DNA of 32,000 nucleotides from Desulfocapsa sulfexigens DSM 10523. Its GTDB lineage: Bacteria > Desulfobacterota > Desulfobulbia > Desulfobulbales > Desulfocapsaceae. The notes under the pieces are model-generated. The model was given only the letters and a program-made list of their open reading frames with translations, was not told the DNA's origin and made no database searches. Each line of letters begins with the position of its first letter. The first letter of the stretch is position 1. The translations under genes and the position numbers were made by a program. Location of the stretch: the NCBI RefSeq assembly GCF_000341395.1, contig NC_020304.1, positions 630,001 through 662,000 on the forward strand, given 5' to 3'. Below, piece after piece: positions 6,551-32,000 of this stretch.

Positions 6551-7546
6551 ATGAAAAGAGCATGTTTTAAGGGTTTTGAGAGAAAAGCAACACTTACAAC
6601 TGCTGCTGCGATTGCCCTGATGATAGGGGCTACTCAAGTAAATGCCGCCAAAGTCAGCACTCAGGAGTCCACTGAAATGACAACTGAACGCGCAGGTGTC
6701 AGCTTTTCCGCCCGTGCAGGTGTTGGTTATCTTACAGGACAGGCCCACGAGTATGTCTATTGGAAAGAGCTGGGTGGACACACTGCCAGCGAACTTGTTT
6801 GGGATATCGATTCCATGGTCATGTTAGGGATTGGAGGAACAGTCAAACCATTGGAATGGATGAGTATAAATGGTGACGTGTGGTTTAATATCGGTGATGG
6901 TGACGGGAATATGGTCGACTATGACTGGATGGTACCCGGGATGGACTGGACTGACAGATCCACTCACGACGATACCGATGTGAGTACCGGCTTCATGTTT
7001 GATATGAGCTTGGAACTAACTGCCTTTAAAACAAGCTCTGTCTCCTTTAACGGTATTCTTGGTTTCCGCCGCGATGTTTTCGAATGGAAAGCCATGGGCG
7101 GTTCCTATATATACTCTAGTAACGGCTTTCGTGATACCGTAGGAAATTTTCCTGATGGTGAGCTTGGTATTACCTACGAACAAACATTTGATGTACCCTA
7201 TTTTGGTGTAGGAATGGTGGGTGACTTTGACCAATTCCACTTCACAGCAAAATTCATTGCCAGCATGTTTGTCAGTGGTGAGGCTATAGATCATCATCAT
7301 ATGCGTGATCTTGTCACCACCGACGATTTCAGTGGTGAAAACATGTGGGCCATCGATATAGCAGCATCCTATGACATTACTCCATCCCTTGGAGTGGAAG
7401 CAGCCTATTTCTACGAAAGCTATGACACCATGACCGGAGACTCTACCTGGGATTTTGGCTCTGGTAACGTTTCTGTCCTCTCTGATGGGGCAGGAGCAGA
7501 TCTTGAGGTCTCCATGTTCTCTCTGAATCTAATATACACCTTCTAG
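6551..7546 (+). CDS. Omptin-family outer-membrane aspartyl protease (peptidase A26, OmpT/Pla/PgtE-like)
   Basis: 331 aa with a signal peptide ending VNA. It is collinear with E. coli OmpT as I remember that sequence: GNMVDYDWM vs GNMVDQDWM, WTDRSTHDDT vs WTDESRHPDT, GGSYIYSS..GFRD..GNFPDGE..I.Y.Q.F..PY.G, and the C-terminal YTF. The catalytic pairs are retained: D123/D125 (nt 6917-6925) and D247/H249 (nt 7289-7297). AGGAGGA lies upstream of the ATG. Confidence 0.9.
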   Translation: MKRACFKGFERKATLTTAAAIALMIGATQVNAAKVSTQESTEMTTERAGVSFSARAGVGYLTGQAHEYVYWKELGGHTASELVWDIDSMVMLGIGGTVKPLEWMSINGDVWFNIGDGDGNMVDYDWMVPGMDWTDRSTHDDTDVSTGFMFDMSLELTAFKTSSVSFNGILGFRRDVFEWKAMGGSYIYSSNGFRDTVGNFPDGELGITYEQTFDVPYFGVGMVGDFDQFHFTAKFIASMFVSGEAIDHHHMRDLVTTDDFSGENMWAIDIAASYDITPSLGVEAAYFYESYDTMTGDSTWDFGSGNVSVLSDGAGADLEVSMFSLNLIYTF

Positions 7547-18481: not shown

Positions 18482-19119
18482 CAATAAAAATCATTGTGGT
18501 CGACGACCACAAAATAGTCCGAGACGGACTCTGTTCACTTATTGAAGGACTTTCCGGATACACTATAGTAGGCAGAGCAGAAAATGGAAGACAGGCCATC
18601 GAGGTAGCACGCCGGGAAAAACCCGATATCGTCATTATGGATGTGAGCATGCCCGAGATGAACGGCATCGATGCAACAAGTTCTATCATGGAGGAAAGAC
18701 CTTCCTGTAAAATCATTGTCCTCTCCATGCACTCTGACAAACGCTTTATTACCGGTGCTCTCCAGGCCGGAGCTTCTGGATTTCTTCTTAAGGAATGTGC
18801 ATTCCAGGAACTCAACCAGGCACTGGATGCCGTCCGCAGCGGACAAACCTACCTTAGTCCTAAAATTGCTGGTACTGTTGTCCACGATTACCGAAGGCGA
18901 CTGCTCTCTGAAGATAAAGAGAAAGCCCTCACCACAAAAGAACGTGAAGTACTGCAGCTCATAGCTGAAGGACGATCAACCAAAGAAATAGCCGACCGTC
19001 TCTTTGTCAGTATCAAGGCTATTGAAGGAAGACGAAGACGGCTCATGGAAAAACTGCAGATCACGACAATGGCAGGTCTTGTCAAATATGCCATTCGTGA
19101 AGGGCTCACTGAACTCTAA
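18478..19119 (+). CDS. Response regulator, NarL/FixJ (LuxR-type HTH) family
   Basis: 213 aa. The REC domain has VVDDH and DIVIMDVSMPEMNG. The C-terminal LuxR HTH reads LTTKEREVLQLIAEGRSTKEIADRLFVSIKAIEGRRRRLMEKL. The start overlaps the kinase stop by 4 nt (ATGA). Confidence 0.95.
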   Translation: MTIKIIVVDDHKIVRDGLCSLIEGLSGYTIVGRAENGRQAIEVARREKPDIVIMDVSMPEMNGIDATSSIMEERPSCKIIVLSMHSDKRFITGALQAGASGFLLKECAFQELNQALDAVRSGQTYLSPKIAGTVVHDYRRRLLSEDKEKALTTKEREVLQLIAEGRSTKEIADRLFVSIKAIEGRRRRLMEKLQITTMAGLVKYAIREGLTEL

Positions 19120-19427: not shown

Positions 19428-20348
19428 ATGCAGACAATATTTTTCATCCTCTTATTTTTCCTTACAGGGAACACAGCAGTGCTGGCAGAGTCTCTACAGC
19501 CAAAGGAACCTCTCTTTATAAATCCGAATGTGACGACTGAAACCAATATTCATTTCGATAGTAATTACTGTACCGAATGTCACCTGCAGAAACCATCCAA
19601 GGGGGACTCCGTACAGCTGAGATTCGACAACTATACCACGGCCTGCAGATGTCATGGGTACACTCCTGACACATACACCCATCCTGTGGACATAGTGCTT
19701 TCTGCAGAAAAAAAGGCCACTATTCCGGCAGAATTCCCTCTTACAAATGACAAAATCACCTGCGACACCTGCCATAACATGGCACTGCAATGTGAACCAA
19801 AGTACGAGTTGCGACTTCACAACAAGGCATTTTTACGAACAAACTCCTCCCTGGGCCGAACATTTCTCTGCTTTCAGTGCCATGAGGAAGAGCAATACAA
19901 AATGTTTGACCCCCACAAACAACTGGATGCGTCAGGGGCTATAAATGAAGAATCGTGCCTTTACTGTCATGCAAGCAAACCAGATGAACAGCAGGCAACT
20001 TTCAATTCACAGAACAACGGAGAAGACAGCATCCATCTTGTCGGCAACCTGGAGATACTTTGTCTGCGTTGCCACAACGACAAGGCCGGCAACCACCCCC
20101 TGAATAGAAATCATCTGGTCAAACCATCAGAAAAAATCATTTCACGAATGCACTGGTCGGAAAGAAATCTCTGGATCGTGCTGCCCCTGAACAACGAGGG
20201 AAAAATCACCTGTATCACCTGCCACAACCCACACGAACACGGAGTCATTCCCACAGACAAGGCAGCATCTGCCGGAGCAAGCGAAAAAGGCAGACTGAGA
20301 AAGGCATGGGGAGGAGGAAGTATTTGTGTGGTATGTCACAACATCTAA
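19428..20348 (+). CDS. Periplasmic multihaem c-type cytochrome with 7 CXXCH motifs and one degenerate ACRCH site
   Basis: 306 aa with a signal peptide ending AVLA-ES. The CXXCH motifs are CTECH, CDTCH, CFQCH, CLYCH, CLRCH, CITCH and CVVCH. ACRCH lies at nt 19641-19655. The HPVDI and NHPL distal-ligand-like motifs are shared with the 18-haem paralogue. Confidence 0.9.
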   Translation: MQTIFFILLFFLTGNTAVLAESLQPKEPLFINPNVTTETNIHFDSNYCTECHLQKPSKGDSVQLRFDNYTTACRCHGYTPDTYTHPVDIVLSAEKKATIPAEFPLTNDKITCDTCHNMALQCEPKYELRLHNKAFLRTNSSLGRTFLCFQCHEEEQYKMFDPHKQLDASGAINEESCLYCHASKPDEQQATFNSQNNGEDSIHLVGNLEILCLRCHNDKAGNHPLNRNHLVKPSEKIISRMHWSERNLWIVLPLNNEGKITCITCHNPHEHGVIPTDKAASAGASEKGRLRKAWGGGSICVVCHNI

Positions 20349-20361
20349 CAAAGGAGAGAAG

Positions 20362-21426
20362 ATGAGATTGAAGTCACGTTCCCGGCCACTTTGGCCCCTT
20401 AGTATCCTCACACTGCTTGTTATTTACTTCCTGCCCGCAGGCGCGCAGGGATCAGATGTCGGTAACTGCCTGCTCTGTCATAAATACCCGGGACTAAGCA
20501 GGGTTGATGAAAATGCAGAAATGCGGCTTCTCTATGTAAATGAAGAAATTTTCAACCAAAGTGTCCACGCAAAGGTAAAATGTGAGGGATGCCACACTGA
20601 TATCACCAAGATCCCCCATGAACCGGTCAAACCTGTGGACTGTCTGGTACTCTGTCATATCATTGAACCGGCAGAGGAGCAGAAGTTTTCTCACAAGAGT
20701 GTTGAAAAATTCCTGGCCGACAGTGTTCACGGCAAGATGGACGAACATGGCAAAGAAAAGCCTTTCAGTGAAGACATGCCGACCTGTAAGGACTGCCATG
20801 ATAATCCGATGTTCAGACCCCTTGCATTTGTCAAAAAGGTGAGACCCGGTATTGCTGAAGATGCCCTGGGACGCTGCCGAGTCTGTCACAAAAAAGAAGA
20901 ATTCATCTACAGATTTTACAATCACGTCACCACCAGGCTGCACAAGAGCAGAAGTCCGCTCAATATTGCAGAGTCCTGTGCCAGATGCCACGATGACCCG
21001 GAACTGGTGGCCCGACACAACCTCTCCACCATGGCCAGAGGTTCCTATGGGCAGACTTTTCACGGCAAGGCGGCCAACCTCCTGGACGAATCGGTTCCAG
21101 ACTGCCTGGACTGCCACGTACCCAAGGGACAATCCGTACACCAGATGCACGGCAATGATGACATTCGTGCCACCACCCATCCGGAGAACAGAGGACAAAT
21201 TTGTGGATCCGTGGACTGTCACCCAGGTGCCTCCCAACAGTTTGCAAATTATCAGGTCCATGCGGAATTTAACAAGGAACAGAGCCCGGTGATCTACTGG
21301 TTCACCACCTTCTTCATCATTCTCACCGGTGCTACCCTGCTTCCTTTGATGGGAATACTGTTTCTTGATCTGCTTCGCCGCCTGTTTCCCAATGCATCTT
21401 TTAGACGGAGGAAAGAGAAACCATGA
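20362..21426 (+). CDS. Membrane-anchored multihaem c-type cytochrome (6 CXXCH plus CX3CH and CX4CH, C-terminal TM helix). CbcA-like by architecture.
   Basis: I trimmed the track ORF to the ATG at 20362, which follows AAGGAGAG. The signal peptide is MRLKSRSRPLWPLSILTLLVIYFLPAGAQG. The motifs are CLLCH, CEGCH, CKDCH, CRVCH, CARCH and CLDCH, plus CLVLCH (20641-20658) and CGSVDCH (21202-21222). The C-terminal hydrophobic helix is VIYWFTTFFIILTGATLLPLMGILFLDLL, followed by RRLF...RRRKEK. Confidence 0.9.
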   Translation: MRLKSRSRPLWPLSILTLLVIYFLPAGAQGSDVGNCLLCHKYPGLSRVDENAEMRLLYVNEEIFNQSVHAKVKCEGCHTDITKIPHEPVKPVDCLVLCHIIEPAEEQKFSHKSVEKFLADSVHGKMDEHGKEKPFSEDMPTCKDCHDNPMFRPLAFVKKVRPGIAEDALGRCRVCHKKEEFIYRFYNHVTTRLHKSRSPLNIAESCARCHDDPELVARHNLSTMARGSYGQTFHGKAANLLDESVPDCLDCHVPKGQSVHQMHGNDDIRATTHPENRGQICGSVDCHPGASQQFANYQVHAEFNKEQSPVIYWFTTFFIILTGATLLPLMGILFLDLLRRLFPNASFRRRKEKP

Positions 21427-22325
21427 AAAAATATCCAGCAATAAAGTTCAAGGACGGAAAAAAATACTTTTTCCGATTTGATCTGGACACAAGAATCCAG
21501 CATATCATCCTGGCGGCAACAGTCATTATACTGGTTCTGACAGGGATGCCTCTCAAGTTCAGTGATAGTAGCTGGGCTCCTTATCTCTACTCTTTTTTCG
21601 GTGGAAGCAAGATGGCTCCGGTAATACACAAATGGACCGGTGCCATCATGCTTCTCCTCTTTGTTTACCATGTTGTGCGAGTAGTAGGCGGCATCATAAC
21701 GAATCATATCATGCCCCTTAAAAGAGAAGGGAAAATGAGTATAGGCAGGGTCACCATGGTACTGGTCAGACTCCCCATGATTCCAAACCTGAAAGATCTG
21801 AAAGATATCATAGGACTGATGAAATACCTGCTCTATTTCACCAATGAGCACCCGCATGGCGATGAATGGACCTGGAAGGAAAAGTTTGATTACTGGGCAC
21901 CATTCTGGGGTATGTTTGTCATCGGTATCACCGGCCTCATCATCTGGAACAAGGTACTGGCAACCCAGGTCATACCAGGTGAATTTATCAACCTCTGCCT
22001 GATAGCTCACAGTGACGAGGCATTACTGGCGGCACTCTTTCTCTTTATCTGGCACTGGTATAACGTCCATTTTTCCACTTCTGTCTTCCCGATGGGTACA
22101 GTCTTTCTCACCGGTTATCTTCCTGAAGAGCTGATGGTTGAAGAACACTACGAGCATTACGTAAGAGTGATGACCAGGGAAGGATTGGAATCTGAGATCA
22201 AACCGCCCCACGGTGGCGGCAATAATCCGACAATCTGCGGGGAACCACAGGATGTCACCTCGGATACTCCACCAACCACCGCACCAGCCAATGATCCCAT
22301 GCAGCAGGGAGGAGTCAACTCATGA
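21423..22325 (+). CDS. Integral-membrane b-type cytochrome (FdnI/HydC/PhsC-like cytochrome b561 fold). Candidate quinol-interacting subunit.
   Basis: 300 aa with at least four TM helices: IQHIILAATVIILVLTGMPL, HKWTGAIMLLLFVYHVV, YWAPFWGMFVIGITGLIIW and CLIAHSDEALLAALFLFIWHWYNVHF. Histidines sit in TM1, TM2 and TM4 (two in TM4), as expected for two b haems. There are ATGA overlaps with both neighbouring genes. Confidence 0.75.
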   Translation: MKKYPAIKFKDGKKYFFRFDLDTRIQHIILAATVIILVLTGMPLKFSDSSWAPYLYSFFGGSKMAPVIHKWTGAIMLLLFVYHVVRVVGGIITNHIMPLKREGKMSIGRVTMVLVRLPMIPNLKDLKDIIGLMKYLLYFTNEHPHGDEWTWKEKFDYWAPFWGMFVIGITGLIIWNKVLATQVIPGEFINLCLIAHSDEALLAALFLFIWHWYNVHFSTSVFPMGTVFLTGYLPEELMVEEHYEHYVRVMTREGLESEIKPPHGGGNNPTICGEPQDVTSDTPPTTAPANDPMQQGGVNS

Positions 22326-23242
22326 AATGCTTTTTTACCAAGCTCTATGTTCTTGCTTTTATGGGACTGGTCGCCTTTTTCGGTGTGCTCATCTGGAATT
22401 TGACATTTGCCCATCTTATCCATGAATACCATGCAAGACAAGGAGATGTAACAATTACTCCCAGCGGAGAGAATGACAAAAAAGATGTCGGGAATCAAAC
22501 ATTTGACAAGATGATTCTTGAAAGTGAGGATCGGGTCAAACACTATCTCGGCTACCGGGTACTGGAAGAGCAGAGAATAGAAGGACATTTTCACCATATC
22601 GGCTTCGATGTCGGACCCGACAACAGATCCTACTGCAGATCCTGCCATGGCGACATGCCTCACGACTCAGTCAAAGATATTCGGGCATTTTTGAATATGC
22701 ATGCCTTTTTTGTGGCCTGCCAGACCTGCCATGTCAAGCTGACTGATGATGAAAGAACAAACGTCTACAAATGGTATGACCGAAAAACCGGAGAAATTGT
22801 TGAAAGCCCGGTCAATGGAGCTCCACCGGGGACCTACAATGCAAAAATTGTCCCCTTCATTCGTGAAGACGGCAAACTTGTCCGCATCGACAGCGAGGAA
22901 AAAATCCAGTTCGCCACTGACTACAAGACAAATGAAAAGGCGTTGAGCGAAGGCCAGAAATCCAAGGCAAAGAAGATTATCCACCAGATTATCAGCAAGC
23001 TGCCTGTAAGCTGTGAAGAGTGCCACACCAAGAACAATCCTACTCTTCCCCTTGCCGATCTTGGCTACCCCAAGGCCCGGATCGATTCCATCACCAGTAC
23101 AGAGGTGGTGGGAATGATAAAGAACTATACGGAGTTCCATATGCCAAAGATGTTAAACCCAGGCGAAGTATCGCCTGCTGCGCCACAACAGACCGAACTG
23201 CAGCCGCAACAGATGGCGGAACCACAACCAACACAGCATTGA
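22322..23242 (+). CDS. N-terminally membrane-anchored trihaem c-type cytochrome
   Basis: 306 aa. The N-terminal TM is LYVLAFMGLVAFFGVLIWNLTF, with no obvious cleavage site. It has three CXXCH motifs (CRSCH, CQTCH, CEECH) and a Pro/Gln-rich C-terminal tail, PAAPQQTELQPQQMAEPQPTQH. Confidence 0.85.
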   Translation: MKCFFTKLYVLAFMGLVAFFGVLIWNLTFAHLIHEYHARQGDVTITPSGENDKKDVGNQTFDKMILESEDRVKHYLGYRVLEEQRIEGHFHHIGFDVGPDNRSYCRSCHGDMPHDSVKDIRAFLNMHAFFVACQTCHVKLTDDERTNVYKWYDRKTGEIVESPVNGAPPGTYNAKIVPFIREDGKLVRIDSEEKIQFATDYKTNEKALSEGQKSKAKKIIHQIISKLPVSCEECHTKNNPTLPLADLGYPKARIDSITSTEVVGMIKNYTEFHMPKMLNPGEVSPAAPQQTELQPQQMAEPQPTQH

Positions 23243-23254
23243 GAATGCGACCAA

Positions 23255-24217
23255 GTGAACAGATATACCTCACCTGAGTGGTATAAAAGAAGAAGGAGAA
23301 TAGTCACCATTTCTATTCTCCTTTTGCTTACGGCCTGGACATCCGCCGCCCATGCACTGGAGCTGACCATGGCAACACACCTCTTTGATATAGAGGAGGA
23401 ATTCAACCAGCCAAGTGATGTAGCCGTTGCCAGGAACGGTACCATCTATGTGGTTGATGGGGTGAATGGCAAAATCAAGGCATTTTCACCTTCCGGAAAA
23501 CCACTCTTCACTATCGGTCGACCAGGAACCGATCCCGGCGAATTTGCCTTTCCCCTTGGTATTGGACTGGACGAATCTGGCAGAGTCTATGTTGCCGACT
23601 CCAGAAATAGCCGGATCCAGATATTTTCTGCCACAGGCGATTTCATCTCTGAAATTCCGGTTCCAGCCCTGAACGGAGAAAAATCCGACCCAACCGATGT
23701 GGTCGCGGACAGTTCCGGAAAATGGTGTTTTGTGGCAGACAACAATAATCATCGGATTCTCCAATTCGATATTGCCACAAAAAAGCTCATCAACAGCTAT
23801 GGAAAACCCGGGGCTGAAAAATGGGAATTCCGCTATCCCTTTCTCATGCACCTCCATCGGGATAAAGACCTGTACATTGTTGATGTCATCAATACCAGAG
23901 TACAGGTTCTGAATACAGAGGGGAAGTTCGTCACCTTTGTCGGGGGCTGGGGTGTTGAAAAGGGCCATTTTTTCAGACCAAAAGGGATTACTGTGGATAA
24001 AAATGGACTCTCCTATGTCAGTGACAGCTATATGGGAGTAGTTCAACTCTTCAATATTACCGGCACCTTTCATTCAGTCCTTGGTGACCCGACAACGGGT
24101 AAGGTGAAGAAGTTCGTAACACCTGTTGGGCTCTTTATTGACGATGCCATGCACCTCTATGTTGTGGAGATGCTTCCAGGCCGGATCAGTGTTTTCAGCC
24201 TGGAAAATATGCCATGA
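23255..24217 (+). CDS. NHL-repeat beta-propeller protein, secreted/periplasmic (NHL-1)
   Basis: 320 aa from a GTG start with no clear RBS, so the start is uncertain. The signal-like N-terminus is KRRRRIVTISILLLLTAWTSAAHA. NHL blades recur: PSDVAVARNGTIYVVDGVNGKIKAF, PLGIGLDESGRVYVADSRNSRIQIF, PTDVVADSSGKWCFVADNNNHRILQF, LYIVDVINTRVQVL, PKGITVDKNGLSYVSDSYMGVVQLF and PVGLFIDDAMHLYVVEMLPGRISVF. Confidence 0.85.
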   Translation: MNRYTSPEWYKRRRRIVTISILLLLTAWTSAAHALELTMATHLFDIEEEFNQPSDVAVARNGTIYVVDGVNGKIKAFSPSGKPLFTIGRPGTDPGEFAFPLGIGLDESGRVYVADSRNSRIQIFSATGDFISEIPVPALNGEKSDPTDVVADSSGKWCFVADNNNHRILQFDIATKKLINSYGKPGAEKWEFRYPFLMHLHRDKDLYIVDVINTRVQVLNTEGKFVTFVGGWGVEKGHFFRPKGITVDKNGLSYVSDSYMGVVQLFNITGTFHSVLGDPTTGKVKKFVTPVGLFIDDAMHLYVVEMLPGRISVFSLENMP

Positions 24218-26436
24218 TCAGATCCCGTGCCTGCATCCTGATCCTGCTTTTCAGCAGCATGCTTTTTTACTCTCTCCCATGCCTTGCCAATCAGGCACCT
24301 CGCAACCCGAATTCGGCCAAGGAATGTGCGATCTGTCACTATCGATGGATAGATACTTTTTTTATTGATGGCAGGGGCACTGACCTTGTGCCCTATCAGG
24401 AGACTAAGGTGGTCGCAGAGCCCGAAATCTGTTTTTCCTGCCATGACGGCAGTGTGGCAGACTCAAGGGGAAAGGTGTACAACGACCATCGCCACCCCAT
24501 CAACAAACCACCACCACCAGGGATGGAAATCCCAGCCATCTTTCCCCTGGATGAGCATGGAAACATGCAGTGCTTTACCTGCCACACTGCCCATGGAGTG
24601 TCCAGTGAAATGGGGATTGAACGGGCAGTTTTTGTCCGCACATCCAACGATAATTCTTCCATGTGCATGATGTGTCACAAGGGCAAGGATGGTGGGCCTG
24701 CCATGGGCAACCATCCCATTGGCACAACAGAACGACCAATACCTGACAACCTTCTCAATCTCGGGAGTATCGAAGGGTCTGTCACGAATCAGATCATCTG
24801 CCAGACCTGCCACAATGTTCATGGCTCACCCTTTGACAATTTTCTCGTTGAAAACAACAGAGATTCAGGCCAGCTCTGTCTGGACTGCCACCAGGAAAAG
24901 GGCGGTCTGCTAAACAGCGGGCATGATTTACGGCGCACGGCAGCGGAGGCCAAGAACAGCAAGGGACAGCCCCCGGTACAGTCAGGGATATGCGGTGCCT
25001 GTCATCTGGTGCATGGAGCAGAAAAGACAGTACTCTGGGCCCGACCACTTCCTGCTAAGAGTAAAAACAGAACCCAGGATCTGTGCACTAGCTGTCACAG
25101 CAAAACAGGGCTGGCCTCTGAAAAACTCATCAAGGGATATTCTCATCCCGTTAACATTTCTCTTCGGGACAAGGGGATGCGACCTGACCTGCCTGCCTTT
25201 GATCTCACTGGCCGGCGCGTTCAGCAAGAGGCTAAGGACGCACTGCTCACCTGCCCCACCTGCCACGATCCACACCAGGCAGGAACTGCCAGGCAGGCCA
25301 CAATGACCCCGCCCCGTTCAAGTTTTCTTCGGGTAAAGGATGGAAAAGCTGAAAGCCTGTGTAAGCAGTGCCACAGCAAACAGGCATCTGTTGTGGGAAG
25401 CGATCATGACCTGCGAAAGACAGGTGCCACAACAAAAAATACTCAGGGGCAACTGCCTGGCGAGTCAGGACCATGCGGCGTCTGTCATCTTGTTCACGGA
25501 GCACAGACAAAAAACTTATGGGCTCGCAAGGTCTCGAGCAAAAGTGCCTATCCGGCACAGGATCTCTGTCTGACCTGTCACAACAGCAAGGGTGTCGCCA
25601 ATACAAAAGTCATCGCTGACCACTCCCATCCCGTTGACATCAATCCTGAAAAACGAAACATCAGTACTACTCTGCCGCTTTACGACAGTCATGGAGAAAG
25701 AAAATCCAATGGCGTTATAGCCTGTCTGACCTGCCATAATCCACACCAATGGCATCCTAGAAAGCCGACCTCCCACGGAAACAATCATGTTGAGGGAAAC
25801 GCAAAAAACAGCTTTCTCCGTCTTGCCGCCGCACCAGAACCTGCACTGTGCAGCAATTGTCACCCTGAAAAAGCGTATGTGGAAAAGAGTGACCACGACC
25901 TCAACATCACAGCACCCACTGCAACAAATACCATGGGGCAGATCCCGGAAGAATCCGGGGTCTGCGGTGTCTGTCACATCATCCATAATGGAAAAAACAC
26001 GGTACGACTCTGGGCTCGTAACTATGGAGCAGGTAAAGGCATTATGGATAGAATGTGCAACAGTTGTCATACAGATGGGGGATCCGGCAGTAACAAGGTA
26101 CCTGTGGTTTCCACCCATCCGGAAAAACAACTCATCGCTAATCCGGGAAGAAATATCAAAGGAAAGGCAAATTATTTTCCACTTTTTGACGACGAAACGG
26201 CATCACCTATTACCATCGGCGATATTTCCTGTGCCTCATGCCATGATGTGCACCAATGGGATCCCAAAAAGAAACAAAAGGGGAATGGGGAAAATCCTGA
26301 GGGGAAAGCTACCAATAGTTTTTTACGCATGCAGACCTACAACATGATCTGCAAAGACTGTCATGGACTTGATTCCCTGTACCGATTCAAATATTACCAT
26401 GACAGTAAGAAAAGAACACCCATTTCCACCCCATAA
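24214..26436 (+). CDS. Large periplasmic or extracellular multihaem c-type cytochrome with 18 CXXCH motifs
   Basis: 740 aa with the signal peptide MIRSRACILILLFSSMLFYSLPCLA. The 18 motifs start at residues 38, 73, 120, 151, 196, 222, 260, 291, 347, 383, 421, 452, 504, 546, 584, 615, 673 and 713. The start overlaps the NHL-1 stop (ATGA). Confidence 0.95.
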   Translation: MIRSRACILILLFSSMLFYSLPCLANQAPRNPNSAKECAICHYRWIDTFFIDGRGTDLVPYQETKVVAEPEICFSCHDGSVADSRGKVYNDHRHPINKPPPPGMEIPAIFPLDEHGNMQCFTCHTAHGVSSEMGIERAVFVRTSNDNSSMCMMCHKGKDGGPAMGNHPIGTTERPIPDNLLNLGSIEGSVTNQIICQTCHNVHGSPFDNFLVENNRDSGQLCLDCHQEKGGLLNSGHDLRRTAAEAKNSKGQPPVQSGICGACHLVHGAEKTVLWARPLPAKSKNRTQDLCTSCHSKTGLASEKLIKGYSHPVNISLRDKGMRPDLPAFDLTGRRVQQEAKDALLTCPTCHDPHQAGTARQATMTPPRSSFLRVKDGKAESLCKQCHSKQASVVGSDHDLRKTGATTKNTQGQLPGESGPCGVCHLVHGAQTKNLWARKVSSKSAYPAQDLCLTCHNSKGVANTKVIADHSHPVDINPEKRNISTTLPLYDSHGERKSNGVIACLTCHNPHQWHPRKPTSHGNNHVEGNAKNSFLRLAAAPEPALCSNCHPEKAYVEKSDHDLNITAPTATNTMGQIPEESGVCGVCHIIHNGKNTVRLWARNYGAGKGIMDRMCNSCHTDGGSGSNKVPVVSTHPEKQLIANPGRNIKGKANYFPLFDDETASPITIGDISCASCHDVHQWDPKKKQKGNGENPEGKATNSFLRMQTYNMICKDCHGLDSLYRFKYYHDSKKRTPISTP
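24877..26349 (+). repeat. Three tandem intragenic repeats, each about 160 aa and four haems, inside the 18-haem cytochrome
   Basis: The units are aa 222-382, 383-545 and 546-712 (nt 24877-25359, 25360-25848, 25849-26349). Each follows the pattern C..CH-(x)-S.HDL-(x)-G(Q)(x)P.(E)SG.CG.CH..H(x)...LWAR-(x)-C..CH-(x)-(S/T)HP-(x)-C..CH(D/N)(P/V)HQ-(x)-NSFLR (SSFLR in unit 1). The repeats are conserved at protein level and diverged at DNA level. Confidence 0.85.
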
Positions 26437-26600
26437 AAAAGATAGGAATTGTTCACAAATAAAATCTTACAAGCTGTAATCCATTGCCAAGAAAAGGAAT
26501 AATAAGTACCACACCAGCCCTAACCGACAAACACCGAAACCATCGCAATGTCAGGCAGGACGGGCAATCCAGTCAATTTAAAGAGGGATTTGGAACGTAA

Positions 26601-26626
26601 AAAAGAGGGGAACCCCTCTTTTTTCT
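26601..26626 (+). terminator. Rho-independent terminator ending the first cytochrome transcription unit
   Basis: The sequence AAAAGAGGGG-AA-CCCCTCTTTTTT has a GC-rich stem (GAGGGG/CCCCTC) followed by a T-run. It lies about 165 nt after the 18-haem stop codon. An A-tract upstream makes it look symmetric, so it may act in both directions. Confidence 0.8.
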
Positions 26627-26743
26627 CTCACAATCTAGAATATACTACAAAGTATGCACAGACCAATGGAAAGTATCGTTTTCCCAGGCTGCATAGACCT
26701 AAGGGGACAAAAGAAAAATGAATGATCAACGAGAGGATGAATA

Positions 26744-27376
26744 ATGAAAAGACTAGTAATTGGCGTTCTGGCTTTAATTGGCAGCACCGGGATATGCTCA
26801 ACAGCATTTGGAGTAATAACAGGATCGGATCATGACTTCAGTGGGTCAAACTGGAGTAGTGGACAAATTTGTCTGCCCTGTCACGCACCTCATAACGGAA
26901 CAGTTATCGCTGATGCTCCCCTATGGAATCATGATGTCTCAGAGGCCAGCTATACCCTGTACTCCAGTGCCACCCTCGATGCCGATGATCTTTCACAGCC
27001 CGCCGGCGTCTCAAAGCTCTGCCTTTCCTGCCATGACGGAACCGTTGCTATCGATGCCTTTACTGGCCATGACGGTACTATTTTTATAGGAACAATCGGA
27101 ACAGGCAGTGGAGATCTTGGCTCAGCCCTGAATAATGACCATCCCGTATCTTTCACTTATGACAGTGCCCTTGCTACCGCAGACGGTGGTCTTTGGGATC
27201 CAAGCTCAAAAAGTTCAGGAATAACAGAGGGTGGTACAATTGATAGCGACATGCTTTTTGCCGGACGGATGGAATGTGCATCCTGTCATGATGTTCATAA
27301 TAAATATGAGAACACGAGTCTTCTCTTAATAGATAACGATGGCTCTAACCTCTGCCTCACCTGCCACAACAAGTAA
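26744..27376 (+). CDS. Small secreted tetrahaem c-type cytochrome
   Basis: 210 aa with the signal peptide MKRLVIGVLALIGSTGICSTAFG. It has 4 CXXCH motifs (CLPCH, CLSCH, CASCH, CLTCH) and six further His residues (SDHDF, APHNG, LWNHD, TGHDG, NDHPV, DVHNK). The spacers are Gly/Ser/Thr/Asp-rich and look loop-like. GAGAGGA lies 6-7 nt upstream of the ATG. Confidence 0.9.
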   Translation: MKRLVIGVLALIGSTGICSTAFGVITGSDHDFSGSNWSSGQICLPCHAPHNGTVIADAPLWNHDVSEASYTLYSSATLDADDLSQPAGVSKLCLSCHDGTVAIDAFTGHDGTIFIGTIGTGSGDLGSALNNDHPVSFTYDSALATADGGLWDPSSKSSGITEGGTIDSDMLFAGRMECASCHDVHNKYENTSLLLIDNDGSNLCLTCHNK

Positions 27377-27468
27377 CAGGACAATCCGCCATAGGCTGTC
27401 TTCCGTCTGCCCATGCACGTCACGTGTGTGGGTGGACTTTGTTGTTTTCACGGTACCACTTAAAAACC

Positions 27469-28548
27469 ATGCAAAAACCATATCGTTTCTCAGACACACA
27501 GCTGTTATTTCCCCTCCTCTGTCTGCTACTCCTGAGCAGTTGTGCCAGGCCGGTAGAAGAAGCAGCACTCATTTTCTACCCACCACCACCAGAACGCCCG
27601 AGACTTCAGTTTCTCACAGCCATCTCCTCGGAAACAGACCTGGCAGTCAAAAGAGATGCCTTTGACAGCTTTCTCTTTGGTCCCGACCTGTCCTTTTCCT
27701 CCATCGGTCGCCCCTACGACATAGCCTCAGACAGGGGAAGCATCTACCTTATTGACCGTCAGTCCAACAAGATACTCACCATTGATCTGGTGAACAAGGA
27801 CTTCACCGAACTACGAGCCACCGGACGGGGGGCACTCCGTTCCCCGTCAGGTATCTGGGTCACCTCGGATGGCTTCAAGTACATTGCTGACATAAAACGC
27901 CAGCAGATTGTCACCTTCAACAGCAGTAATGAGTTCATCCGTGCCTACGGTAATAAAGAGCTGTTTAATAAACCGGTTGATGTTGCTGTTTATAACAACA
28001 ACATCTATGTCTGCGACATGGTCAAAAGTCAGATCATTGTCCTCGACAGAGATTCGGGAGAAGTCGTTATGACCGTTGGGGAGAGTGGATCCGAAGAGGG
28101 GCAGCTGCATAAGCCGACACATGTAACAGTGGACAAACATGGAAATGTTTTTGTCAATGACGCCTTTAATTTTAGAGTCCAGCAATTTGACAGTTCTGGA
28201 GTATTTGTGAAAACTTTTGGCTTCCACGGAGACCGCATGGGAGGAATGGCCAGAAGCAAAGGGCTGGATGTAGATCAGGAAGGAAATTTGTATGTGGCGG
28301 ATGCGGCCTTTGAATATGTACAGATTTTCAACAAAGACGGTCAACTGCTCCTTTTCTTCGGTGGCCCTGGAAATGCTCCTGGAAATATGTACCTTCCGGC
28401 CGGGGTCCATATTGATTATGAGAACATCCAATTCTTCAATACATTTGCAGACCCGAATTTCAAACTGAAATACCTCCTCTATGTGTGCAATATGAGTGGT
28501 TCAAATAAGGTCAATGTCTATGGATATGGAGACTGGAGCGGTGAATAA
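27469..28548 (+). CDS. NHL-repeat beta-propeller lipoprotein (NHL-2)
   Basis: I trimmed the track ORF (GTG at 27424) to the ATG at 27469, giving MQKPYRFSDTQLLFPLLCLLLLSSC with the lipobox LSSC. A PPPPERP linker follows. NHL blades include PYDIASDRGSIYLIDRQSNKILTI, PSGIWVTSDGFKYIADIKRQQIVTF, PVDVAVYNNNIYVCDMVKSQIIVL, PTHVTVDKHGNVFVNDAFNFRVQQF and GLDVDQEGNLYVADAAFEYVQIF. Confidence 0.85.
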   Translation: MQKPYRFSDTQLLFPLLCLLLLSSCARPVEEAALIFYPPPPERPRLQFLTAISSETDLAVKRDAFDSFLFGPDLSFSSIGRPYDIASDRGSIYLIDRQSNKILTIDLVNKDFTELRATGRGALRSPSGIWVTSDGFKYIADIKRQQIVTFNSSNEFIRAYGNKELFNKPVDVAVYNNNIYVCDMVKSQIIVLDRDSGEVVMTVGESGSEEGQLHKPTHVTVDKHGNVFVNDAFNFRVQQFDSSGVFVKTFGFHGDRMGGMARSKGLDVDQEGNLYVADAAFEYVQIFNKDGQLLLFFGGPGNAPGNMYLPAGVHIDYENIQFFNTFADPNFKLKYLLYVCNMSGSNKVNVYGYGDWSGE

Positions 28549-28598
28549 TAATTGCTAGCAGACTTGACAGAACCATCCCATATAAAGAAAAATAACTA

Positions 28599-29294
28599 AT
28601 GCACAAAATTTCCATCCACATAGTAATGATGTTTTTTCTAACAGCTTCCCTCAGCGGATGTGAAGCGAAAAAACAGCATGAAGTGCTTACCTTTTTCTTC
28701 ACCGGGGTTCCCCCCTTGGAGGAAACAGCTGCTGTAACAAGTGATCAGGAACTTCAGGATGTACGGGAGACAACGCCGGGGCCAAAAACTGTACAGGTTC
28801 AAACCCTCTATTCCCACCCGGTATGGGCCGCCGGCGTCTGCGACCCATGTCATGGAAGTACGGGAACATTCAGCACTCCCGGGGTCCAGAAACAACCTCA
28901 AACAGTCTTCAAAACAGGTGGCGGTATGCCTGGTGAACTCACCCTGCCGAAAACGAAACTCTGCATACAATGCCACAGAGACAAAACACCTTTACGGGCA
29001 CTTACAGAACGACTCTGGCTACATAACACAACGGCAAAAGGGGATTGCATGGCATGTCACGATCCCCATCAGAGCAAGAATAAAAACACCTTGCGAAAGC
29101 CACCGGTAAAAATCTGTCTTTCATGCCATGAAAATGGGACTTTTATGGCAACACCAGCCCACCAGACAGGAGAAGACTGCCTTTCCTGCCATACTCCACA
29201 CATGGGCCTCAATAAAAATTTACTCAAAAACGAATATCAGGAGCAGAAAACGCCAGCGCTCCAAATCCCAGAGACAATGGTACAGGGTCGGTAA
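28599..29294 (+). CDS. Pentahaem c-type cytochrome lipoprotein
   Basis: 231 aa with a canonical lipobox (LTASLSGC). It has 5 CXXCH motifs: CDPCH, CIQCH, CMACH, CLSCH and CLSCH. Confidence 0.9.
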   Translation: MHKISIHIVMMFFLTASLSGCEAKKQHEVLTFFFTGVPPLEETAAVTSDQELQDVRETTPGPKTVQVQTLYSHPVWAAGVCDPCHGSTGTFSTPGVQKQPQTVFKTGGGMPGELTLPKTKLCIQCHRDKTPLRALTERLWLHNTTAKGDCMACHDPHQSKNKNTLRKPPVKICLSCHENGTFMATPAHQTGEDCLSCHTPHMGLNKNLLKNEYQEQKTPALQIPETMVQGR

Positions 29295-29334
29295 CATCAT
29301 TTTACAAGAAAAAAAGAAATGATCTCAAAAAGAA

Positions 29335-31401
29335 ATGCACTCTTCCTATAACCTCTTCCCAGTGACCCTGTTTGTCCTGCTCCCGCTGTTTTTTCTTCTC
29401 ATGGGGCCAGTACAAATCCAGGCTGCTGAAGAAACGGAAACGGGTGAAGTTCAGGCTCCGACAACCCCTCCTGTCTCATCACCCATTCCCAGGCCACGAA
29501 TGACGGCAGTGCCCAATGGTCTTCTTGGACAGAACTATTTTATTAAACGGCCGGGTATGGGAGCAGGACTCACCTATGAATACAAAGATGAGTCGCGGAC
29601 AACCAGTGGAACCACTGTCAAAGACAGCTATCACAGATTTAAAGAACGGGTGAGACTGCAAACGGATGGATGGCTATATCATCCAGCGCTTATGCAATAT
29701 TCCCTGATGATTGAACCGGAGTGGATCCAGTCAAAAGAAGTTAACACTTCAGGAGAAACTGGCAGAGTCAACTCCTTTTCACCAGACTATGCAATGACCG
29801 CGACCTTCCTTCAGCAAAAGCCCTACACCTTTAACTTTTTTGCCAGCCGACGAGAATCTCCGGTGTGGGCAGCATTTGCCGGTGACACTGAAACTCTTGT
29901 CGACACATACGGCACAAATATACGACTCAAATATAAAATTTTACCAACCGTATTTGGGTACTCTCACGTCAAAACTGATCAGCAGGGTTACTATAGTTCA
30001 GAAAACATACGCGACAATTTCCATTTCACCTCGCGGCATCAAAATAACAGAAGCAGCACATCTTTCAGTTCCACCTACAGTGACGACAGGAGAAGCACCG
30101 AAGACAGTGATACTAAAATCACTACGTTCAACAACAGTCTCACGAACAACTATCAAATAACCAGTGACAATACAATCAAACTCAACTCATTCCTGACGTA
30201 CAGAACCCAGGATAGTGATGTGTTTGATACAGCGAACCTCCGACTGCGAGAACAGCTGAACTGGCGGCATCGTGCAAATCTGCGATCAAACTATTCATTT
30301 ACCCACACCCTGCAGGAAACCGACAACACACAGTCCGAAAGAACAGCACTCGATGCCCGCTTAACACATCTTTTATATGAAAACCTCACCACAAACGTCG
30401 GAAGCAAAGGCAGTCTCTATGATTACTCAGGGGGACGGGAGAATGCGTTCAATACTTTTCTTAATTTCACATACACCCGTCCCATCTCCTGGGGTACCCT
30501 GAATCTAAACAGCGGTTGGGACTACCTCTATACAGACCGCAGCGGATTCACCAGTTCAATTGCTCAGGTAACCAATGAACCACACACCCTGAGCCCTGCC
30601 ACCGAAACCTACCTGGCCAACTATGGCGTACGAACTGAGTCCATCGTTGTAACCAATACTCCCGGAACAATCATCTATATTGAAAACATAGACTACAGCG
30701 TCGACACCATCGGTGATTACACCAGAATAAATTTTCTCTCCTTTGGCTCCATAGCAGCCGGACAATCTGTCATGGTCAGCTACAGCTACACCCGAGATGC
30801 AGAGTATGATGACGGTATAGCCACCGAGAACTATGGTATGAACATACATTTGTTTAATAGCTTGGATTTTTCCTACAATTACCTGCACACCAAACAACAC
30901 ATTCTTTCTGGCCTGGAACCAAAGAACAAAATTGATGATACCATCCACAGATTCAAAATTCGTCATTACACAAACTGGGCTGATACCACCTTCCACTATG
31001 AAGACAACGACCGTGTTTCCAACCGTCCCTTTACCAGATGGGAACTCCAGGAGACATTAAGCTACAGGCCTGCATGGCAAGTACACTTTTCACTCAAGGG
31101 ATATTTTGGCCAAACCTCCTATACAGATGATAATGAAACAAAAGACTTTTATGGAGGAGTCACTACCTTTGACTGGCTCCTCAACCGCTGGTGCAGGTTT
31201 CGGTTGGAAGGGTATTATGACAATATCAATGGGGATGTGGAACAGACAGAAAATATCGGTGTCAAGGCAGGACTGGAATTCCGCTACCGTATCTGGACAG
31301 CACGACTAACCTATGAACTCACTGACCAGAACAATATAATAACGGATTATGAGCGAACGAAACAACTCCTTCGTTTTGAAATTATCCGCATCATGTGGTG
31401 A
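29335..31401 (+). CDS. Large outer-membrane beta-barrel protein. Candidate porin partner of the adjacent lipoprotein cytochrome.
   Basis: 688 aa. The signal peptide ends IQA-AEE and is followed by a Pro-rich linker (APTTPPVSSPIPRP). The rest is Y/T/N/S/R-rich with alternating hydrophobic and polar stretches throughout. There is only one Cys. The C-terminus, LLRFEIIRIMW, ends in an aromatic residue as in typical OMP C-terminal signatures. Confidence 0.75.
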   Translation: MHSSYNLFPVTLFVLLPLFFLLMGPVQIQAAEETETGEVQAPTTPPVSSPIPRPRMTAVPNGLLGQNYFIKRPGMGAGLTYEYKDESRTTSGTTVKDSYHRFKERVRLQTDGWLYHPALMQYSLMIEPEWIQSKEVNTSGETGRVNSFSPDYAMTATFLQQKPYTFNFFASRRESPVWAAFAGDTETLVDTYGTNIRLKYKILPTVFGYSHVKTDQQGYYSSENIRDNFHFTSRHQNNRSSTSFSSTYSDDRRSTEDSDTKITTFNNSLTNNYQITSDNTIKLNSFLTYRTQDSDVFDTANLRLREQLNWRHRANLRSNYSFTHTLQETDNTQSERTALDARLTHLLYENLTTNVGSKGSLYDYSGGRENAFNTFLNFTYTRPISWGTLNLNSGWDYLYTDRSGFTSSIAQVTNEPHTLSPATETYLANYGVRTESIVVTNTPGTIIYIENIDYSVDTIGDYTRINFLSFGSIAAGQSVMVSYSYTRDAEYDDGIATENYGMNIHLFNSLDFSYNYLHTKQHILSGLEPKNKIDDTIHRFKIRHYTNWADTTFHYEDNDRVSNRPFTRWELQETLSYRPAWQVHFSLKGYFGQTSYTDDNETKDFYGGVTTFDWLLNRWCRFRLEGYYDNINGDVEQTENIGVKAGLEFRYRIWTARLTYELTDQNNIITDYERTKQLLRFEIIRIMW

Positions 31402-31404
31402 ACC

Positions 31405-32000
31405 ATGTCTCTTCAACAAAGACAGAACATACATAAAATGATACAGAAAAAGTCCCACTTCAGCGGCATAGCCATTCTCCTGCTCCTCTTTTCCATTCTT
31501 TCTCTGCATGGCTGCACATCCAAACCCCTTGATCCACCTCCCCCACCTGTTGATCTGGTGTGGCCCGGAGGAGAAGAAATTTCACGGATCCGCTTTCTTG
31601 GCAGTATCTCAAAACCCGAAGATTTTCAGATAACAGAATCCTTCCTGGTCCGTTTTTGGGGCTATATCGTTGGTCACCAGGACAGGAGTCTGGTGGCCCC
31701 CTATGCAATAACCGGTGACAGGAAGGGCAGACTCTTTGTTGTTGACACCTTTTTACAAAAAGTTCAGTGCTTCGACGCTGCCGCCAAAAAATTCCACGCT
31801 TTCCCCGCTGAAGACAAACCCATGACATCTCCCATAGCCATCGCTGTAAACAACAGTACTAGCTTGATCTATGTTGCAGACTCCAAAGATGGCATAATCA
31901 AGGTTTTCAAGGGAGTAGATGATACCAATCCACAAAGCATTGGCAAAAATATCCTGCAACGTCCCACTGGCCTTGCTGTTCACCTGGAAAGGAACGAACT
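31405..32000 (+). CDS. NHL-repeat beta-propeller lipoprotein (NHL-3). Partial, continuing beyond the window.
   Basis: Absent from the ORF track because it is truncated. My translation reads MSLQQRQNIHKMIQKKSHFSGIAILLLLFSILSLHGCTSKPLDPPPPPVDLVWPGGEEISRIRFLGSISKPEDF...APYAITGDRKGRLFVVDTFLQKVQCF...PIAIAVNNSTSLIYVADSKDGIIKVF...PTGLAVHLERNE and stays open to the end of the window. The lipobox-like LHGC, the poly-Pro linker and the RxxFL motif parallel NHL-2. The ATG at 31438 is an alternative start. Confidence 0.75.
   Translation, partial: MSLQQRQNIHKMIQKKSHFSGIAILLLLFSILSLHGCTSKPLDPPPPPVDLVWPGGEEISRIRFLGSISKPEDFQITESFLVRFWGYIVGHQDRSLVAPYAITGDRKGRLFVVDTFLQKVQCFDAAAKKFHAFPAEDKPMTSPIAIAVNNSTSLIYVADSKDGIIKVFKGVDDTNPQSIGKNILQRPTGLAVHLERNE

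Follow-up and report, generated by a model that had tools for sequence, protein, structure and literature searches.

The 32,000-nucleotide stretch of Desulfocapsa sulfexigens DSM 10523 analyzed here (NC_020304.1, positions 630,001 to 662,000; hereafter referred to as the window) carries, from position 19428 to its end, a close series of multihaem cytochrome genes. Our analysis indicates that this region is probably part of a 17-gene extracellular-electron-transfer locus composed of two independently conserved modules, a Cbc-like module (unit 1; hereafter module A) and an omcE-type nanowire module (unit 2; hereafter module B). The omcE core itself is known and was recently described; what is new is its combination with module A, the organism that hosts it and the sequence rules given below.

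Gene calling and motif counting gave ten complete open reading frames (ORFs) and a truncated one between 19428 and 32000, all on the + strand. The complete ORFs encode, in order, 7, 6, 0, 3, 0, 18, 4, 0, 5 and 0 CXXCH motifs, 43 in sum, and the variant haem motifs within the window are one CX3CH and one CX4CH, both in the second protein (20362-21426). As only about 0.01 CXXCH is expected by chance per 2,000 residues, this motif density is far beyond chance. The original prediction, made by a model from the letters and their ORFs, had described eleven co-oriented genes with 43 CXXCH motifs, and its counts and domain calls were borne out by the ORFs, by Pfam and by an AlphaFold2 (AF2) model of the barrel protein. 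Its expectation that further components follow past position 32000 was also correct: on the source contig, the whole cluster comprises 17 genes over about 19 kb, with 75 CXXCH and 5 variant motifs. The window covers the first two-thirds of it, and module B runs about 6.3 kb past the window end. For this part we used the coordinates of the 33-kb D. sulfexigens contig L001 (window position = L001 position + 19334); other loci are likewise cited by L numbers. The genes past 32000 encode the rest of the third NHL protein (NHL-3), an 11(+1)-haem and a 13(+2)-haem cytochrome, a TPR protein, a thioredoxin-fold/TPR protein and an 8-haem cytochrome. The cluster is then bordered by the genes for HSP20 and glutathione synthetase, the latter being UWK_00572, in agreement with the genome paper (PMC3739170). 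A literature search with the UWK locus tags returned only this genome announcement, in which the cluster is not discussed (PMC3739170).

The two units differ in packing. Intergenic gaps of 14 nucleotides (nt) or less, or ATGA overlaps, had been claimed throughout; this holds for unit 1 (13, -4, -4, 12 and -4 nt) and for the junction between the barrel and NHL-3 genes (3 nt), but not for the other distances in unit 2 (92, 50 and 40 nt). Modules A and B are separated by a gap of 307 nt.

The omcE-type gene cluster of module B

The features of module B, with the terminator that precedes it, are as follows.

26599-26624, + strand: intrinsic terminator between the units, AAAAAGAGGGG-AACC-CCCTCTTTTT followed by a T/C run
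26744-27376, + strand: OmcE-like tetrahaem cytochrome, 210 residues, signal peptide, N-terminal DHDF histidine; putative nanowire subunit
27405-27437, + strand: 15-bp stem-loop with a U-rich tail, 29 nt past the OmcE-like stop codon
27469-28548, + strand: NHL-2, beta-propeller lipoprotein, lipobox LSSC
28599-29294, + strand: pentahaem lipoprotein cytochrome, 5 CXXCH, lipobox LSGC
29335-31401, + strand: outer-membrane beta-barrel protein, 100% identical to UWK_00564, 688 residues, C-terminal Trp
31405-32000 (window end), + strand: NHL-3, 364 residues in full (L001 12071-13165)
Past the window, overlapping the NHL-3 gene by 4 nt: 11-haem cytochrome, 571 residues, 11 CXXCH and one CX3CH

The first gene product, which had been taken for a small tetrahaem cytochrome of an unknown conduit, proved instead to be a full-length OmcE homologue encoded in a published type of cluster. 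Its residues 6-210 matched the OmcE filament of Geobacter sulfurreducens (PDB 7TFS) with an E-value of 2.4e-24 and 38% identity, and it also matched 9YUQ, a 16-chain filament entry, at E 3.5e-20. The structure in 7TFS is reportedly that of Wang et al. 2022. According to Petersen et al., the minimal omcE cluster 'always' contains two multihaem cytochromes, two beta-propeller lipoproteins, OmcE and a large beta-barrel, and occurs in five phyla (bioRxiv 10.1101/2025.10.22.684050). The segment from 26744 to L001 14877 has exactly this content, with the subunit, the barrel, the propellers and the two further cytochromes all present.

All components are thus shared with the omcE clusters of G. sulfurreducens and Desulfuromonas soudanensis, D. 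sulfexigens having the 'marine' form without the glycosylation gene block. Unlike those clusters, the present one belongs to a sulfur disproportionator, encodes a subunit with no more than the above identity to Geobacter OmcE, and has on its 5′ side a Cbc-like module that includes an 18-haem OmcE-repeat cytochrome; 13- and 8-haem cytochromes and TPR and Cys-less thioredoxin proteins follow it, and the filament is here a prediction from the genes. The extension encoding the 13-haem, TPR, thioredoxin-fold/TPR and 8-haem proteins is common to Desulfobulbales and Geobacter/Desulfuromonadaceae. As a separate observation, L007 and L011 encode 240-residue, 5-haem OmcE-like paralogues near the core, which correspond to the '5-haem OmcE-like' family named by Petersen et al. 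as a possible new nanowire type.

We assessed the conservation of the cluster in a sample of 43 loci collected by a barrel-profile scan with one genome per species. The order OmcE-like, NHL-2, pentahaem lipoprotein, barrel, NHL-3 and 11-haem was kept in about 40 of them, distributed over Desulfocapsaceae, Desulfobulbaceae, Geobacter, Desulfuromonadaceae, Desulfobacteraceae, Nitrospirota, Nitrospinota, Hydrogenophilales and Beta/Gammaproteobacteria, and two loci with barrels of only 24-27% identity had it as well. The original prediction had been staked on co-conservation in related genomes, and this synteny is what we found.

The barrel protein was modeled with AF2 from 88 homologues (mean predicted local distance difference test score, pLDDT, 86.9). 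The model has 30 long strands joined on both faces by connectors of 2-7 residues, apart from one conserved 57-residue insert (420-476). A loop-less barrel of this strand number should have a lumen of roughly 4 nm. The best-conserved connectors (115-119 and 348-350) lie on the face that we infer to be periplasmic. The insert, located between strands 18 and 19, includes a number of near-invariant residues and might act in docking or as a plug. Neither Pfam nor NCBIfam contained a family matching the barrel even at E<=10, and a fold search against the PDB returned generic large barrels (TonB receptors, LptD, FimD, MtrB and SlpA) with TM scores of 0.3-0.38; that against MtrB (6R2Q_B) was 0.33. MtrB and LptD form barrels of 26 strands. 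With 30 strands, no Pfam match and this TM score, the present barrel is not a member of the 26-strand MtrB/PioB family; its strand number, higher than that of MtrB, also goes against a barrel too narrow to host a cytochrome, a finding that had been named as one that would refute the prediction. The family comprises 149 representative clusters at E<=1e-30 among 1.84 billion representatives. In L012, L014, L015, L017 and L028 (Geobacter/Desulfuromonadaceae), the barrel homologues are 887-918 residues in length, about 200 residues longer than UWK_00564; the extra part is probably an N-terminal TPR extension, since other homologues of about 900 residues carry TPR domains. D. sulfexigens instead has a separate gene for a 167-residue TPR protein.

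The pentahaem lipoprotein has its best solved relative in 6R2Q chain A (E 2e-8), which we take to be MtrA of the Mtr complex, though the database label reads 'Cystathionine beta-synthase'. Its scores with the decahaem models were far under the cutoffs, with 68.6 bits against 192.2 for TIGR03508 (DmsE-family) and 34.7 against 209.3 for TIGR03507. A crude test found the lipobox in 29 of 37 orthologues, and the gene stands directly 5′ of the barrel gene in 36 of the 43 loci. It is reasonable to regard the two proteins as a porin plus lipoprotein-cytochrome pair, and the pairing proposed in the original prediction is thereby supported. Module B resembles MtrCAB/MtoAB in having a periplasm-facing multihaem cytochrome beside a large barrel, and the pentahaem, 13-haem and 8-haem proteins are locally similar to MtrA. 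Unlike those systems, it has a barrel of another family and neither a decahaem MtrA nor an MtrC, its extracellular partner being OmcE-like. The barrel of omcE clusters has been proposed to be a filament secretion device or anchor, and so to do more than sheathe a cytochrome as MtrB does (Petersen et al., bioRxiv 10.1101/2025.10.22.684050).

Folding of the intergenic regions supported the predicted terminator between the two units: the stem-loop at 26599-26624 has a free energy of -13.6 kcal/mol (z -3.9), and none of 200 shuffled sequences was equally stable, although an automatic terminator scan did not list it. The hairpin at 27405-27437 is stronger (-23.9 kcal/mol, z -5.8). A hairpin of <= -20 kcal/mol was found 3′ of the OmcE-like gene in 87% of 31 loci, as compared with 0-18% after most other cluster genes. 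Such a pattern is as expected for a major structural subunit overproduced relative to its machinery, and we regard the D. sulfexigens hairpin as a putative attenuating terminator that would leave the subunit transcript in excess over the machinery transcript. In module A, a hairpin of <= -20 kcal/mol lies 3′ of the N-anchored trihaem gene (23242 onward) in five of eight loci (62%).

Module A and the 18-haem cytochrome

Module A occupies the first seven kilobases of the cluster.

19428-20348, + strand: 7-haem periplasmic cytochrome c, 7 CXXCH, signal peptide, Cytochrome_C7 and Paired_CXXCH domains
20362-21426, + strand: C-anchored cytochrome, 6 CXXCH with CX3CH and CX4CH, signal peptide, C-terminal transmembrane helix
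21423-22325, + strand: FdnI/HydC-type membrane cytochrome b, PF01292 (E 8e-9), four transmembrane helices
22322-23242, + strand: N-anchored trihaem cytochrome, 3 CXXCH, N-terminal hydrophobic segment
23255-24217, + strand: NHL-1, six-bladed propeller, signal peptide, NHL E 5e-22, 4-nt ATGA overlap with the 18-haem gene
24214-26436, + strand: 18-haem cytochrome, 18 CXXCH, an N-terminal 6-haem part followed by three tandem tetrahaem units of about 162 residues

The cytochrome b protein scored 51 bits with TIGR01583, under the cutoff, and matched FdnI (1KQF_C) at E 1e-3. It has an FdnI-like histidine pattern, with His27 in the first transmembrane helix, His69 in the second, and His196 and His211, 15 residues apart, in the fourth. 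These four residues are candidate ligands of two b-haems, and a menaquinol site is putative. Homologues with 60-68% identity occur in Nitrospirota and Desulfobulbales. The C-anchored protein has its hydrophobic segment at residues 309-327 of 354, and its gene stands directly 5′ of the cytochrome b gene also in L045-L047 and L049, while the position of the trihaem gene 3′ of the cytochrome b gene is likewise conserved. Orthologues of the 7-haem cytochrome hold the same position in L002, L046 and L047.

The complete six-gene order (multihaem, C-anchored, cytochrome b, N-anchored trihaem, NHL and giant cytochrome) is kept in three genomes of Nitrospirota and Desulfolithobacter (L045-L047). One of these has the module twice, and none has an omcE core within 10 kb. 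A b cytochrome with candidate ligands for two haems (PF01292, four transmembrane helices) adjoins membrane-anchored multihaem cytochromes c, as in Cbc-type modules. Among the locus proteins, Pfam, NCBIfam and the gene calls revealed no iron-sulfur (FeS) or NrfD-type membrane subunit of the kind that marks Hmc/Tmc/Qrc complexes. Judged from its genes, unit 1 is a separately conserved module with a Cbc-like architecture, which agrees with the predicted extracellular-electron-transfer locus in two units, the first Cbc-like and devoid of FeS and NrfD subunits. When the architectures are compared, Geobacter CbcBA/CbcL (bioRxiv 10.1101/2021.04.15.440034) similarly has a dihaem b subunit adjoining a C-anchored multihaem cytochrome c; here, in contrast, all four candidate b-haem histidines are in the b subunit, and the module adds an N-anchored trihaem cytochrome, an NHL protein and a giant cytochrome.

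The three tandem repeats of this giant, 18-haem cytochrome are 41-46% identical to each other (z 40-53). Their profile aligned over its full length with that of the OmcE-like proteins (hhalign probability 99.1%, E 9e-19), the best among the locus comparisons, in a setting where unrelated multihaem profiles of the locus already give 95-98% probability. After the fourth CXXCH of each repeat, the His of the (K/D)H(D/N)(L/M) motif of the next repeat comes at +11, and a YHD His comes at +12 after the last CXXCH. This +11/+12 spacing is kept in 12 close homologues and in five from Nitrospirota/Desulfolithobacter, the Nitrospirota ones carrying 16-20 haems. A resemblance of the repeats to OmcE is suggested mainly by the full-length colinearity and the histidine spacing, and the 18-haem protein is a candidate periplasm-spanning wire.

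The three NHL proteins of the locus are paralogues with 30-35% identity, each forming its own orthologous group. NHL-2 matched six-bladed propellers of the TRIM71 type at E 7e-38 and has its lipobox in 26 of 35 orthologues in a crude test, whereas the lipobox is absent from eight orthologues of NHL-1; NHL-3 is probably a lipoprotein, though its lipobox (LHGC) is atypical. Every NHL gene lies immediately 5′ of a multihaem cytochrome gene, two of them through an ATGA overlap, and the NHL-3 gene directly precedes the 11-haem gene in 37 of 43 loci. The view that such propellers lack an assigned role in characterized conduits has to be softened, as they are defining parts of the omcE cluster and occur in the Uet and Desulfovibrio ferrophilus clusters too. 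By their descriptions, the clusters DFE_0448-0451 and DFE_0461-0465 of the last organism also have multihaem cytochromes interleaved with NHL genes, unlike the present locus with no porin reported, and the NHL proteins have been proposed to stabilize an outer-membrane cytochrome complex there (PMC5815863, PMC9769857). Roles of NHL proteins in complex stabilization or assembly stand as proposals.

A trailing histidine in OmcE-like units

All eight Cys and eight His haem-ligand columns are invariant in 30 orthologues of the OmcE-like protein. These free proteins all bear an N-terminal xHD(F/L) histidine, and 29 of the 30 terminate two residues past the fourth CXXCH. The 11-haem cytochrome, 55-60% identical across phyla, begins with a related domain: its residues 1-211 matched the hidden Markov model of the OmcE-like family end to end (independent E-value 4e-50), in contrast to the other locus cytochromes, which gave motif fragments only, and its N-terminal region matched 7TFS at E 7e-31 with 43% identity. 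In all of 36 members of the 11-haem family, a His follows exactly 10 residues past the His of the fourth CXXCH.

Published structures of OmcE have the interfacial haem bound by a His from the neighboring subunit (PMC12954529). On this basis we infer that haem 4 has the trailing His as its distal ligand, which would come in trans within filaments and in cis within the fused proteins. A terminal 'stopper' was predicted by Petersen et al. to be OmcE-like and to have nine His for its four haems, and they had no candidate to report from omcE operons (bioRxiv 10.1101/2025.10.22.684050); the N-terminal domain of the 11-haem protein fits this description.

These patterns may be read as three states of a single tetrahaem unit, set by one trailing His. 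Free subunits would polymerize via the N-terminal His of the next subunit; the 11-haem protein, with its His in cis, would be the terminal or base subunit, docking on the unsatisfied filament end and extending the haem chain into the 30-strand barrel; and the module A cytochromes of 16-24 haems, with His at +11 between units and at +12 at the C-terminus, would be closed, pre-polymerized chains serving as periplasmic wires. We advance this generalization tentatively and with some doubt. If true, it would explain how OmcE nanowires are anchored and terminated, a question that the describers of the cluster left open. The OmcE-like domain and trailing His of the 11-haem protein, the OmcE-like repeats of the 18-haem protein, the ending of the free subunits and the hairpin after the subunit gene are new from this analysis.

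The osc operon of G. sulfurreducens (Shen et al. 2025, summarized in PMC13194489) follows a similar concept, its nanowire subunit gene being accompanied by factors dedicated to folding, secretion and morphology. Its subunit differs in belonging to the hexahaem OmcS family. Comparison with the PDB gave no OmcS-like hexahaem match for the 6-haem protein or the other locus proteins searched, a set that left out the 7-haem (19428-20348) and trihaem (22322-23242) cytochromes. OscD of the osc operon is said to be propeller-like.

Alternative readings, flanking genes and implications

In the electron route that we propose, the FdnI-type dihaem cytochrome b of module A would exchange electrons with menaquinol and pass them through the two membrane-anchored multihaem cytochromes to the 7-haem and 18-haem periplasmic cytochromes, the latter a single-chain OmcE-like concatenation that would be long enough for a periplasmic wire. 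From there they would move to the pentahaem lipoprotein in or at the barrel, on to the 11-haem adaptor and the OmcE-like filament, and finally to a solid acceptor, in a chain that could in principle run both ways. The MtrA-like pentahaem lipoprotein and the loop-less barrel would make up the trans-outer-membrane part; the OmcE-like tetrahaem would be the filament subunit, overproduced by means of the attenuating hairpin; and the 11-haem protein, in which the fourth haem of the OmcE-like domain would be ligated in cis, would join the filament end to the membrane complex. The NHL propellers may be assembly or docking partners of the cytochromes encoded next to them, and the downstream TPR and Cys-less thioredoxin-fold proteins may aid maturation. 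The thioredoxin-fold/TPR protein (L001 16842-17975, about window 36176-37309) has SxxS or GxxS instead of the active-site CxxC in all of 15 orthologues; it probably lacks redox activity and could be a chaperone or binding protein.

For the direction of flow we lean slightly to the outward one, to Fe(III) or other solid acceptors. The same apparatus might work mainly inward, with Fe(II)/FeS minerals, S0, cathodes or partner cells as electron sources, the direction proposed for Uet of Tenderiales; we consider this possible though on balance unlikely. It would suit the homologous clusters in Nitrospirota, Hydrogenophilales and Beta/Gammaproteobacteria metagenome-assembled genomes (MAGs), the 11-haem homologues annotated from 'Candidatus Mariimomonas ferrooxydans' and the life of D. 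sulfexigens as an autotroph at FeS/S0 interfaces (PMC3739170). The compositionally similar Uet has been linked to cathode oxidation. By its published description (bioRxiv 10.1101/2022.05.06.490989; PMC10734462), Uet of 'Ca. Tenderia electrophaga' and some Gallionella shares with the present locus a tetrahaem cytochrome, a very large barrel (28 predicted strands as against 30 here), two NHL proteins, an 11-haem cytochrome and downstream TPR/cytochrome-maturation genes. It differs in gene order, in lacking the pentahaem lipoprotein, and in having the peptidyl-prolyl isomerase UetB, the cupredoxin UetF and three trihaem c7 cytochromes, UetDEG, which are absent among the 17 genes. OmcE of Geobacter and Desulfuromonas, on the other hand, is associated with reduction of Fe(III) oxide and electrodes, and since multihaem chains are reversible, sequence leaves the direction undecided.

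The two modules might also be functionally independent, module A serving another periplasmic redox process such as sulfur-compound metabolism. The terminator and the gap between them, the occurrence of module A without a nearby omcE core in L045-L047 and the lack of module A within 10 kb of most omcE cores all point that way. The original prediction had stressed that every layer is in one place; this is true here but lineage-specific, the modules being adjacent in only about 9 of 45 loci examined. The modules adjoin in the order seen here in five MAG loci from Desulfobulbales (Desulfocapsa, Desulfocapsaceae and Desulfobulbaceae), in a variant form in three Desulforhopalus/Desulfosediminicola loci and in reversed order on the distant 2.5-Mb contig L049. 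This recurrence of the juxtaposition in at least three arrangements, though not universal, argues for a functional coupling; the OmcE-like units of the giant module A cytochrome and the 13-haem and thioredoxin-fold/TPR accessory genes often found at module A loci also speak against independence, which we judge rather unlikely. In L048 (1-6778), a distant omcE-core locus, the divergent neighbors encode two thioredoxin-fold/TPR proteins, a 13-haem-like cytochrome, an FeS flavoprotein and a Rieske/cytochrome b pair, which suggests a different inner-membrane partner there.

A plain porin-cytochrome conduit lacking a filament, the model of the original prediction, in which the barrel sheathes the pentahaem and/or the 11-haem protein as MtrB does MtrA and the tetrahaem protein is a soluble or surface monomeric relay, would agree with the frequent position of the MtrA-like pentahaem gene directly before the barrel gene, with MtrB among the fold matches, and with the demonstration of polymerization of OmcE homologues in two Desulfuromonadia species only (bioRxiv 10.1101/2025.10.22.684050). 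It seems quite improbable to us, because the tetrahaem protein keeps every OmcE ligand including the N-terminal His and, unlike its fused relatives, has no cis ligand after the last CXXCH, a signature expected for polymerization in trans; the hairpin 3′ of its gene is of the kind that follows a major-subunit gene, and the cluster composition is the same as in species shown by experiment to form filaments.

Some barrel homologues have N-terminal TPR repeats, which PgaA/BcsC-type exporters also carry. That the barrel is an unrelated polysaccharide/PEP-CTERM outer-membrane protein placed among the cytochrome genes by chance, as these repeats and its source (UniRef) label 'TIGR03016 family PEP-CTERM system-associated outer membrane protein' might suggest, is scarcely credible, given that TIGR03016 matched neither the barrel nor four homologues at E<=10, that no NCBIfam or Pfam family matched the barrel at that threshold, and that about 40 loci from several phyla have its gene flanked by the pentahaem and NHL/11-haem genes.

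Several points weigh against the two-module extracellular-electron-transfer locus that we favor. D. sulfexigens is known as a sulfur disproportionator for which Fe(III) is a chemical sulfide scavenger, and is not known to respire Fe(III) (PMC3739170); even for Geobacter, there is dispute about how much OmcE filaments matter physiologically (PMC13194489); and in D. sulfexigens the locus is so far a matter of genes. The modules are apart in most genomes and have a terminator between them here. The hhalign score of the 18-haem repeats with OmcE, 121, is only modestly above the background of 73-91. The AF2 model of the 11-haem protein, from 74 homologues, has a pLDDT of 46, which leaves the adaptor role to the residue patterns, and the side of the barrel that faces the periplasm is assumed.

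Directly 5′ of unit 1 lie the genes of a two-component pair.

16487-18481, + strand: CHASE4 sensor histidine kinase (Pfam CHASE4/HisKA_3/HATPase_c)
18478-19119, + strand: NarL/LuxR-type response regulator (Pfam Response_reg/GerE)

This pair may regulate the locus, its membership being uncertain; in L049, a HAMP kinase and a sigma-54 regulator sit between the two modules instead. The genes further upstream, among them one for MgtE, are unrelated. The segment 8698-14697 encodes a sucrose-phosphate synthase/phosphatase fusion, a second sucrose-6-phosphate phosphatase, an alpha-amylase-family enzyme and a PfkB kinase; it looks like a compatible-solute sucrose locus, seemingly unrelated to the cytochrome cluster. 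An omptin-family outer-membrane protease gene is located at 6551-7546 (E 6e-55), the family being better known from enterobacteria. An Rfam scan of the window found no RNA family, and its base composition gave no genomic-island signal.

If our reading is true, a culturable marine sulfur disproportionator from the order of the cable bacteria encodes a full route from the quinone pool to an extracellular wire, and its need for Fe(III) oxide during growth on S0 might exceed chemical sulfide scavenging. It would also offer a second lineage, outside Desulfuromonadia, for studying the assembly of OmcE-type nanowires. For the questions of how a nanowire starts, stops, is anchored and has its subunit produced in excess, three features are mutable targets: the His that trails at +10 to +12, the OmcE-like part of the 11-haem protein and the post-subunit hairpin. 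Finally, the wide spread of the core and of module A in MAGs of Nitrospirota, Desulfobacterota and Proteobacteria suggests their use as markers of extracellular electron exchange.

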